DNA of 64,000 nt from a bacterium. GTDB lineage: Bacteria > Omnitrophota > Gorgyraeia > Duberdicusellales > 4484-171. A program made the position numbers and the translations under genes. The notes beneath the pieces were generated by a model. It saw only the letters and a program-made list of their open reading frames with translations, was not told the origin of the DNA and ran no database searches. Below, piece by piece: positions 57,354-59,117 of this stretch (positions are counted from its first letter, which is position 1; every line of letters starts with the position of its first letter). Where the stretch lies: assembly GCA_021796115.1 (NCBI GenBank), contig JAJYOP010000002.1:70842-134841 (forward strand), read 5' to 3'.

Positions 57354-59117
57354 ATGGAAAACAAATATTTTATTTATGCCAGGAAGTCAACGGAAAGTGA
57401 GGATAGGCAGATTTTAAGCATTGAGTCTCAGCTAAAAGAAGCAAACGACCTGGCCAAAAGGTATAATTTAAAAGTAATAGATATTTTAACCGAAGCCAAA
57501 TCTGCTAAAGCTCCAGGCAGGCCCATTTTTAACCAGATGATTGAAAGAATCAAAAAAGAAGAGGCTGTTGGAATTATTTGCTGGAAGCTCAATAGGCTTG
57601 CAAGGAATCCTGTAGATGGCGGACAAATCATTTGGTTGCTTCAACAAGGCATCATAAAGCATATTATCACTGCGGAAAGAAGTTATTATCCGGATGATAA
57701 CACTATACCGATAACGGTTGAATTCGGAATGGCTAATCAGTATGTGCGGGATCTAACCAGAGATACTAAAAGAGGTTTAAAAGCTAAATTAGAGAAAGGG
57801 TGGATACCTTGTATGCCTCCTTTAGGCTGGTTAAATAATCAAGGGCTAGATAAATCTGAAAATGCTATTATAAAAGACCCTGAACGCTTTCATCTCATAA
57901 GAAAAATGTGGGAGCTGATGTTAACAGGAATTCACACGCCCCCAAAGATACAGGAAATCGTAAACAACGAATGGGGATTTAGGACAAGAATATCAAAGCG
58001 GACAGGCGGTAAGCCTTTATCCCGAAGCGCCATTTATAAAATATTCACTAATCCCTTTTATTATGGAATGATTGAGTATAATGGAGAGCTTTGCTCTGGA
58101 AAGCATGAGCCTATGGTTACTAAAGAAGAATTTGATAGGGTACAGCTTCTGCTTGGCAGGAAAGGTAACCCCAGGCCAAAGACGCATACTTTTGCCTTCA
58201 CAGGAGAAATAAAATGCGCTGAATGTGGAGCATCTGTCACCGCAGAAGTGAAAACCAAAATATGCAAATCCGGAGAAATCCACTATTACATCTACTATCA
58301 TTGTACGAAAAGGAAAAAAGGTGTTAAATGCTCACAGCGTGCTATCAGAAGCGAAGACCTGGAACGTCAGATAAAAGAAATTTTATCAAAGCTTAATATC
58401 GATAATGATTTTTTGAATTTAGCTTTAAAATATCTAAGCAAAATACATGAAGATAAAATTAAAGACGAAAATACAATCAAGAAATCAATTGAAACAGCTC
58501 GTGAAGGCATTGAAAAACAACTTGATAATTTAACTGGCATACGGTTGAAGGGATTGATTGATGACCAGGAATATATACAACAGAAAAACAAGTTACTTAC
58601 AGAAAAGACACAGCTTGAAGAAAAACTAGGTAATACCGGATACAGGCAAGATAACTGGAAGGAATTATCAGAAAAAAGCTTTAATTTTGCTCATCATGCA
58701 CCATATTGGTTTGATAATGGCAGCTTAATTGATAAGAAAACAATTCTCCATACTATAGGTTCGAACTGTATACTTAAAGACAGAAAACTCTCTATTTCCT
58801 TAAAGAATCCCTGGTTAATCATCAAGGAGGGGTTGGAAAAGGTTGAGCAAGAAAAAAACAGGTTAGAACCATTGCAATCTATTGAAAACAAAGGAGAAAA
58901 TTCCTGTCACTCCCTCATAAATCCATATTGGCTGCCCGGTGAGGACTCGAACCTCAAAAAACAGACCCAAATTCTGCTGTGTTACCAATTACACTACCGG
59001 GCAAATTTAATTTTCAGGTTAATTACCCCCTCACTTCGTTTGGGGGCAATTCGGCTACGCATTTTTCCAGACAGGAAGTCTGGTAAAATGCTGCCTCATT
59101 GCACTACCGGGCAATGA
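57354..59117 (+). CDS. Large serine recombinase (resolvase + recombinase + zinc-ribbon + coiled-coil)
   Basis: YARKSTESEDRQ catalytic Ser motif and ICWKLNRLARN. Zn ribbon reads CAECG...YYHCTKRKKGVKC. GAGGGA RBS before the ATG at 57354. The last 60-odd codons read through antisense tRNA-Gln and a repeat element. Confidence 0.85.
   Translation: MENKYFIYARKSTESEDRQILSIESQLKEANDLAKRYNLKVIDILTEAKSAKAPGRPIFNQMIERIKKEEAVGIICWKLNRLARNPVDGGQIIWLLQQGIIKHIITAERSYYPDDNTIPITVEFGMANQYVRDLTRDTKRGLKAKLEKGWIPCMPPLGWLNNQGLDKSENAIIKDPERFHLIRKMWELMLTGIHTPPKIQEIVNNEWGFRTRISKRTGGKPLSRSAIYKIFTNPFYYGMIEYNGELCSGKHEPMVTKEEFDRVQLLLGRKGNPRPKTHTFAFTGEIKCAECGASVTAEVKTKICKSGEIHYYIYYHCTKRKKGVKCSQRAIRSEDLERQIKEILSKLNIDNDFLNLALKYLSKIHEDKIKDENTIKKSIETAREGIEKQLDNLTGIRLKGLIDDQEYIQQKNKLLTEKTQLEEKLGNTGYRQDNWKELSEKSFNFAHHAPYWFDNGSLIDKKTILHTIGSNCILKDRKLSISLKNPWLIIKEGLEKVEQEKNRLEPLQSIENKGENSCHSLINPYWLPGEDSNLKKQTQILLCYQLHYRANLIFRLITPSLRLGAIRLRIFPDRKSGKMLPHCTTGQ
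58929..59003 (-). tRNA. tRNA-Gln (anticodon UUG), CCA encoded
   Basis: Hand-folded 75-nt cloverleaf. Acceptor TGCCCGG/CCGGGCA with U1-A72 and G73 (the bacterial tRNA-Gln identity pattern). D stem GTGT/ACAC. Anticodon stem GCAGA/TCTGT with loop AUUUGGG. T arm TGAGG-TTCGAGT-CCTCA. Confidence 0.85.
59022..59092. repeat. Family-2 intergenic repeat copy directly upstream of tRNA-Gln
   Basis: attaccccctcacttcgtttgggggcaattcggctacgcatttttccagacaggaagtctggtaaaatgc. Contains two hairpins (ccccc/ggggg and ccagac/gtctgg) around the conserved AATTCG..CTA..CATTTTTCC. Confidence 0.8.
59098..59114. repeat. 17-bp duplicate of the tRNA-Gln 5' end (16/17 identical to 58988-59004)
   Basis: attGcactaccgggcaa versus attAcactaccgggcaa, 110 bp apart, in direct orientation. 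Confidence 0.85.

Follow-up and report, generated by a model that had tools for sequence, protein, structure and literature searches.

The 64-kb stretch of contig JAJYOP010000002.1 analyzed here (hereafter the window) contains the gene of a large serine recombinase, the reading frame of which continues through the opposite strand of a whole tRNA-Gln(UUG) gene. The frame has 592 codons (57339-59117, +; 592 aa), and the public gene call, with its start at 57354, gives a recombinase of 587 aa (P0001). The protein is complete, with the Resolvase, Recombinase and Zn_ribbon_recom domains recognized by Pfam (table 1), and by this domain content is classified as a large serine recombinase, that is, a serine integrase. 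When 16 homologues are aligned, R15 and S17 do not vary, S17 being the catalytic serine of the R-x-S motif, and the zinc-ribbon cysteines C293, C296, C322, and C331 are likewise invariant among the aligned homologues.

At 58929, the triplet TGG, which is the complement of the CCA end of the tRNA, is translated as W531 and is followed by L-P-G-E-D-S-N. From there the frame crosses, in this order, the entire tRNA-Gln gene, a repeat copy (59026-59080), and a 17-nt copy of the 5′ end of the tRNA before it reaches its stop (TGA, 59115-59117). The last 62 codons form a tail antisense to these three features, and the final five of them are encoded by the 17-nt copy. An earlier note on this DNA had described the same run through the antisense tRNA, the repeat (its "family 2") and the duplicated tRNA fragment, and the limits 57339-59117 confirm it. 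The note had also placed the end of recognizable recombinase sequence at ~58.85-58.9 kb, and the homologues can be aligned up to W531 at 58929; its count of 60-odd open codons beyond the recombinase holds, with 62.

The overlap with a tRNA gene is a trait of the family. The homologues are mostly 530-545 aa long and align with the window recombinase up to W531. Homologous loci were compared in species-representative genomes, most of them from Patescibacteria; in 51 out of 80 the recombinase frame ends in an antisense tRNA, with 10 isotypes involved. The frame is also fixed: 45 of the 51 loci either end ahead of the T-loop or translate it as "W....DSN", in the same frame, and only two translate it in another frame. 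A survey of the order to which the window belongs (85 genomes of Omnitrophota) provided 18 distinct homologous loci, 14 of which have a recombinase frame ending in an antisense tRNA. The window frame enters its tRNA at the CCA/discriminator end in the fixed frame of the family. Since the same junction in the same frame recurs in most homologues, comparison places the overlap itself far beyond chance.

The genome of the window carries a second recombinase, 28% identical to the first (contig C5, 70378-72130), which ends with "...NWLPGEGSNLGHPG" inside a tRNA-Asn gene and thus has the same junction in the same frame. A sequence similar to the P′ arm described below, GATGTTCGAAC, lies at ~69172 (-) of the same contig, 1.2 kb beyond the tRNA-Asn and on the strand of the recombinase.

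Two classes of tail and the partner junctions

The comparison of 120 homologous proteins revealed two classes of C-terminus. About 33 of them possess, instead of a tRNA-antisense tail, a different and conserved native tail with the motif "..L-L-R-x-x-D-D-V-R-T-F/Y.." followed by "..I-P-x-Y/F..". At the protein level, the conservation extends beyond the DNA site discussed below, with "VRT[FYW]" and, 12-20 residues on, "[FI]-x-I-P-x-[YF]". Native and tRNA-antisense tails are common up to "W/L-L-R" and split about three codons past the W/L position.

The 10 kb upstream of the recombinase were searched in the 51 integrated loci for the partner junction, that is, the left attachment site (attL), the right one (attR) being the junction with the tRNA. 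In nine loci, attL was found as a flank, an 8-nt core, and GTT(A/C)GAA at a distance of exactly 23 nt from the start of the core. In the controls, with the motif at 20 other offsets or on the opposite strand, 0-1 loci were obtained. The flank is often a terminator hairpin, the core is identical to that of attR in 6-8 of its 8 positions, and the conserved motif GTTAGAAC stands 23 nt from the core in all nine. In these relatives the native tail is found at the opposite end of the element, where it follows the same 8-nt core, and the cores common to attL and attR occupy the position of the tRNA end. The attL/attR pairs delimit elements of 5.9-11.5 kb. The cleanest pair is that of locus L059 (attL at 4764 and attR at 10648, 5.9 kb apart), with core TGGCTCCG and a terminator hairpin as B arm. 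Its attL reads ...terminator-TGGCTCCG-CACAGTTGATCAAGTTAGAAAC... and its attR ...TTCTTGT-TGGCTCCG-AAGCTCGGACTCGAACC, the latter in a tRNA-Asn.

In the motif following the core, synonymous positions are conserved as well, with GTT AGA ACY in most of 18 sites, so that the motif is a DNA signal. In native and attL sites, the hexamer T(A/C)GAAC and the start of the core are 23 nt apart, versus 18 nt in the tRNAs, where the hexamer is the T-loop TCGAAC. In the tRNA-Gln of the window, TCGAAC also begins 18 nt from TGG; the shift of 5 bp was established in the relatives, as the window holds only the half of the attB type (attB being the chromosomal attachment site and attP that of the element). In serine integrases, the motif recognized by the zinc-ribbon domain is 5 bp nearer to the center in attB than in attP (PMC3783163), and the difference between 18 and 23 nt equals this rule. 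In the subfamily nearest to the window recombinase, the P′ arm corresponds to the tRNA 3′ end with a 5-nt insertion, TGGCTCCCCGGGCAGGAC-GTTGT-TAGAAC; this arm was recovered from at least four orphan attL sites of the genome holding locus L001.

The chromosomal side of the junction is evident from the relatives of the host. The gene order spoVG then tRNA-Gln(UUG) is found in 30 out of 30 of them. The identity of the window with the unoccupied loci of genomes G006 and G003 spans the tRNA and ends at 58925, 4 nt past CCA, which sets the left bound of the core. The right bound is given by the homologues with native and with tRNA tails, which part ~9 nt into the tRNA. The T-stem of the window tRNA-Gln differs from that of the relatives in one compensatory pair change, as expected if the entire tRNA is host DNA. 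According to the genome-wide tRNA list, this is the sole tRNA-Gln(UUG) in the assembly.

These comparisons make it likely that the window frame represents a large serine integrase in its integrated state, with attP inside its own coding sequence. It is equally probable that the recombinase belongs to a large group of serine integrases which insert at the extreme end of tRNA genes. In the free element, W531 would be followed by a native tail, whose DNA would represent the P′ half-site and resemble a tRNA 3′ end with a T-loop-like GTTAGAAC placed 23 nt from the core. The last 8-10 codons or so before W531 would constitute the P arm of the former attP. The chromosomal target would be the extreme 3′ end of a tRNA gene, with its last ~25 nt (in the tRNA-Gln of the window the last 25, from CCA through the T-loop) as B′ half-site, the T-loop TCGAAC 18 nt from the core, and the tRNA trailer or terminator as B half-site. 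Crossover would take place within a few bases around CCA and the discriminator, so that the tRNA would be left intact with the element directly behind it. On integration, the native tail would end up at attL, the far junction, and the recombinase gene would become fused to the antisense strand of the tRNA at attR. The scheme, with its 5-bp shift, would be ordinary serine-integrase logic transferred to the end of a tRNA, and the integrase frame would contain the core together with both arms, P and P′. We infer the recombination itself, as well as the exact crossover dinucleotide, from the sequences.

In the window, the insertion would have occurred at tRNA-Gln(UUG) after spoVG, the frame being host DNA from W531 on and happening to stay open for 62 codons. 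The swap of tails could also be a built-in switch, with a native tail that may serve integration or the binding of a partner or directionality factor, and arbitrary tRNA-antisense residues that would lock or re-tune the inserted enzyme; this idea is tentative and, on balance, unlikely.

The earlier note had suggested an attachment site within the 3′ end of the recombinase gene and, with it, an exchange of the C-terminus on integration. This idea gains support from the two tail classes and from the nine attL sites of the relatives. Native C-termini resembling the tRNA-antisense part would have spoken against it; in the homologues no similarity was found over the whole length of that part, alignable sequence ending at W531 and the two tail classes diverging a few codons later. 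Its alternative, a chance absence of stops, applies to the length of the tail and fails for the overlap, which recurs in the homologues. A stop-free run of 62 codons appeared in 4.3% of composition-preserving shuffles of the tail. In 52 loci, the overlap measures 10-105 nt (median 36.5), and the 189 nt of the window is the longest. From these figures the unusual length is attributed to chance.

Several arrangements were met in other loci. In the genome holding locus L001 (L148-L152, one metagenome bin) there are at least four orphan sites of the attL type, each with an unrelated flank, TGGCTCCCC(T/G)GGCAGGACGTTGTTAGAAC, and a conserved tail of ~30 aa with "VRTF...IEIP.YD", which points to several such elements in one genome. 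Recombinases with native tails outside Patescibacteria have one or two extra copies of core plus P′ 2-5 kb downstream, as in L010 (3742, 5936), L023 (11564, 15125, 16317), and L072 (11567, 14294). The shared sequence TTTCGGCAATTT precedes the extra copies in L010 and L023, and the geometry of the three loci does not match a simple attL/attR pair. In L008 (11585-11700), GGCGCAAAGGGG precedes the tRNA-His beside the recombinase and its inverted repeat, CCCTTTTGCGCC, follows this tRNA, so that the P arm has an inverted counterpart past the tRNA.

The metagenomic contigs of the closest homologues L121, L124, and L126 have ends 0-73 nt from the recombinase stop, as would be expected of an assembly graph at an attachment site present in two configurations. 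No terminal overlaps were found when short contigs were tested for circularity. In L120 and L122, the ~200 nt after the recombinase stop are ~95% identical (L120, 11636-11835), the recombinases themselves being only 74% identical. Neither an Rfam match nor a tRNA was found in this stretch, and the conserved ~200 nt downstream of proteins P0003 and P0010 gave no Rfam family.

The surroundings of the element

Table 1. Features of the recombinase locus and its surroundings in the window (aa, residues of the 592-aa frame)
Feature	Position	Strand	Basis or remark
Exosortase/PEP-CTERM and exopolysaccharide locus with AbiE pair	31850-56220		Pfam; synteny with G001, G002, G003, G005, G006
Orphan C-terminal stub of IS3-family transposase, 43 aa	56221-56349	-	Pfam rve_2, E 9e-9, profile 22-56/56
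Three GGTCAAAA sites, one inverted and two direct, within 26 nt	56432-56457		Upstream of accessory gene
Accessory gene of the element, 269 aa, N-terminal HTH_31	56540-57349	+	Pfam
Element-encoded part of recombinase, aa 1-530 (putative extent)	57339-58928	+	Pfam; invariant R15/S17; same-genus homology stops at 58925
Resolvase (PF00239), N-terminal catalytic domain	aa 11-154		Pfam, E 4e-17
Recombinase (PF07508)	aa 186-272		Pfam
Zn_ribbon_recom (PF13408), zinc beta-ribbon	aa 287-347		Pfam
Putative crossover zone (core), ATAT-TGG-CTGCC	58925-58936		CCA end, discriminator and first acceptor bases of tRNA-Gln
Host tRNA-Gln(UUG), encoded CCA	58929-59003	-	ARAGORN and Rfam
Putative host-encoded replacement tail, W531-Q592 and stop	58929-59117	+	Antisense of tRNA, then of spacer upstream of tRNA
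Dispersed small host repeat, hairpin CCCCC..GGGGG and CAATTCGGCTA	59022-59080		In spacer upstream of tRNA
Duplicate of tRNA-Gln 5′ end, 17 nt	59098-59114		16/17 identical to 58988-59004

The small accessory gene directly upstream of the recombinase is shared by the window and the family. The C-terminal ~45 aa of its product are homologous (tblastn) to small open reading frames (ORFs) just upstream of related recombinases; the matches adjoin the recombinase in L124, L001, L125, L120, and L126 and lie farther upstream in ~20 other loci. The protein is a candidate regulator or directionality factor. The sequence GGTCAAAA has five copies in the window, and the three which are clustered upstream of this gene resemble an operator.

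Farther left, the IS3 stub was also matched to annotated IS3 transposases by tblastn, and nothing of the transposase lies upstream of it. The stub is the seam at which the polysaccharide locus and the recombinase module meet, and probably marks the site of a deletion which removed the left part of the element together with attL. No attL was recovered in the window or in the 1.72-Mb assembly, either with the 3′ segment of the tRNA (up to three mismatches; Smith-Waterman) or with scans for the core-plus-P′ motif, and no inverted copy of the P arm was found. A tblastn search with 17 native tails had its best matches in a V-ATPase gene and a radical-SAM gene, that is, chance matches. The swapped-out native tail and the partner junction are no longer in the genome of the window, as judged by searches of an assembly with an estimated completeness of 88%.

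Three candidates for a junction were rejected: "TTTTGGCTTGGG" at ~56.33 kb lies inside the IS3 stub; a direct repeat of 13/14 (56150/58898) is no better than expected by chance in a region of 3.4 kb; and a 7/8 core at C4:46121 is antisense within a host ORF.

An IS3 insertion followed by a deletion would have left the operator-like sites, the accessory gene with its HTH domain, and the intact recombinase frame. We read the module as a stranded integrase remnant. As the frame is intact, the remnant may be recent or still expressed.

The polysaccharide locus separates the recombinase module from the genes that directly follow tRNA-Gln in genomes of the same genus, namely glmU, or a copper-type P-type ATPase gene and then glmU. 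Their counterparts in the window are at 27854-31616, and ~27 kb lie between the tRNA-Gln and these ancestral neighbors. Only the last 2.6 kb of this distance appears assignable to the recombinase element, and the polysaccharide block is treated as context and not as cargo. In the closest relative, G005, a collinear polysaccharide locus is on another contig, with homology ending at ~56.2 kb. An AbiEii toxin gene and its upstream partner (51362-52602, -) lie in the middle of the exopolysaccharide operon, and the collinear locus of G005 lacks them.

On the other side of the junction, the repeat in the spacer (59026-59080) has an inverted copy at 25393-25447 and ~5 additional partial copies elsewhere in the genome, and G002 has a related sequence at the same position. 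Fragments of the tRNA 5′ end upstream of tRNA-Gln were also found in G001, G002, and G003, all without the recombinase. In G002, a genome of the same genus, the 5′ fragment is followed by a spacer of ~108 nt with the related repeat and by the full tRNA. Since the same arrangement exists in a genome of the genus without the recombinase, comparison identifies the repeat and the 5′ fragment as host features unrelated to it.

Downstream of spoVG in G001 (L116, ~820-1460) and G003 (L117, ~2060-2520), the 5′ tRNA fragment is cut at the anticodon and is followed by a 76-nt insertion with two hairpins, a small ORF of a GIY-YIG nuclease, and a full tRNA copy. G001 has, in addition, a 3′ fragment of the tRNA with the same 76-nt two-hairpin insertion. 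This looks like a different mobile element which invaded the anticodon loop of tRNA-Gln and brought a spare tRNA.

Alternative explanations

Several points weigh against the interpretation of the window frame as an integrated form with a swapped tail. Neither attL nor an excised form is available for the window element, and the swap is thus not reconstructible for the window recombinase itself; the assembly is a metagenome bin, estimated to be 88% complete, and attL could be in its unassembled DNA, and the contig could be chimeric at the seam. The nine loci with attL belong to relatives of 45-50% identity that fall outside the closest subfamily. In that subfamily attP and attB share ~18 nt, so that the crossover is bounded by indirect arguments only. 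The close homologues L120, L122, L125, and L126 keep a tRNA-like end of 24-25 nt with no remainder of the tRNA, which may be read as insertions beside tRNA 3′ fragments. Finally, for the family as a whole the proposed mechanism is supported by comparison of sequences.

Each of the other explanations accounts for some of the observations. In a conventional tRNA island, the element would carry the last 18-25 nt of the tRNA, cross over in the T-loop and leave the displaced 3′ fragment at its far end, and only the part of the tail after the residues "DSN" would be host DNA. The close homologues that end in 24-25 nt of tRNA-Asn-like sequence fit this model, as do L042, in which 18 nt of the tRNA 3′ end are repeated 10.6 kb upstream, and the identity of attP and attB over ~18 nt in the closest subfamily. 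However, the identity of attL with the tRNA stops after 6-8 nt in the nine loci, and displaced 3′ fragments were found by BLAST in just two of the 51 integrated loci. The geometry of the half-sites (PMC3783163) puts the center ~11-13 nt before the T-loop motif, near CCA and the discriminator, and the compensatory change in the T-stem argues that both of its strands are host DNA. The model is considered improbable.

A still smaller chance is given to an element that brought its own complete tRNA-Gln and destroyed that of the host, with the junction at 59098-59114 and the whole tail made of element DNA. There is precedent in tRNA-dependent lysogeny (PMC10865867). Fragments of the tRNA 5′ end are located 75-390 nt past the full tRNA in L005, L008, L017, L022, L042, L077 and the window, and in L008 a 3′ part (1-41) 8.9 kb upstream and a 5′ part (41-74) downstream meet at the same position. 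On the contrary, the position of tRNA-Gln after spoVG is conserved in all 30 relatives, G002 has the same 5′ fragment, the spacer of ~108 nt, and the full tRNA without a recombinase, and the spacer repeat is a dispersed repeat of the host. The fragments of G001 and G003 accompany the small GIY-YIG gene and palindromic mini-insertions and not a recombinase, and the attL sites of the relatives put the junction at the CCA end.

A function of the long tail as such, or selection for it, for instance as a domain specific to the integrated state or as a coupling of recombinase translation to tRNA transcription, is in our view highly unlikely. The frame of the tail is the only one of the three to stay open (62 codons vs. 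26 and 3), and the tail of L135, a related member of Omnitrophota, is equally long (~63 residues), with ~35-50 residues in several other loci of this group. Yet the lengths across the 52 loci are continuous (3-35 codons), and nothing is conserved beyond what the tRNA dictates. In the window, the tail is made up of the tRNA, the dispersed repeat, and the fragment of the tRNA, all of which arose or are constrained for reasons unrelated to the tail, and an event of 4% should occur many times in a family with thousands of members. Least credible of all is a coincidence, in which an unrelated recombinase gene lost its stop codon beside a tRNA. The window does lack attL or any other direct mark of an insertion by this enzyme, but the family keeps the junction in a fixed frame, partner junctions exist in nine of the 51 integrated relatives, and homology with the relatives breaks exactly at the CCA end.

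Known systems

Serine integrases are the main tools for the insertion of large DNA, and a large natural clade which lands at the 3′ tip of many tRNA genes without damage would add near-universal landing sites. An attP that imitates the tRNA end with a 5-bp spacer would offer a readable rule for the discrimination between attP and attB. The design would also explain a common oddity of annotation, namely recombinase genes which "run through" tRNA genes and contigs which break there. In the genome of the window, the module would be a dead end of the process, stranded beside the only tRNA-Gln(UUG) gene.

The full-text literature, with most subscription journals outside the coverage of the search, provided no account of serine integrases that target tRNA genes and have attP within their own gene; the group targeting the tRNA 3′ tip is apparently unpublished. 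In an earlier description, tRNA genes are not among the targets of serine integrases (PMC4383910). The window enzyme has the same architecture, Resolvase, Recombinase and zinc ribbon with coiled coil, as the large serine integrases of phages (Listeria A118/LI integrase, phiC31, Bxb1, and SprA of SPbeta). As in those, the attachment sites of its family are short, with a small shared core and the motif 5 bp nearer to the center in attB (PMC3783163). Unlike those, the family would target the tRNA 3′ tip, with attP inside its own frame, a tail that depends on the state of integration, and a P′ arm that imitates the tRNA 3′ end.

The mycobacteriophage Fionnbharth, an example of tRNA-dependent lysogeny, similarly integrates in a tRNA gene with a short common core of ~10 bp (PMC10865867). 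In systems of this type the recombinase is a tyrosine recombinase, the host tRNA is destroyed and a phage tRNA replaces it, whereas the tRNA of the window appears to be intact and host DNA. The single tRNA-Gln(UUG) of the assembly stands where the relatives of the host have theirs, and its spacer and 5′ fragment are present in G002 too.

The target of the myxophage Mx8 is also a tRNA gene. Its attP is located within the integrase coding sequence, and integration yields a recombinant gene with a new 3′ end, intP becoming intX (PMC6070905). The likeness consists in an attP placed in the integrase gene and a C-terminus altered by integration at a tRNA gene. Mx8 Int is, however, a tyrosine recombinase, with unrelated chemistry and attachment site architecture, and represents a single phage as opposed to a large family with many tRNA isotypes. 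A looser likeness in the design of attP within the gene is seen in the "suicidal" integrases of the SSV type from hyperthermophilic archaea (PMC8371274), which are tyrosine recombinases as well; their gene is split into two non-functional parts, whereas the family of the window would exchange only the last 20-60 residues. Pfam recognizes only serine-recombinase domains in the window enzyme and not the fold of the tyrosine recombinases, and the resemblance to Mx8 and SSV is therefore functional and not one of family membership. If the tail swap does act as a switch, it would be the serine-integrase counterpart of IntP/IntX of Mx8 across a very large clade, with the universally conserved acceptor and T-arm of tRNAs as its landing pad.

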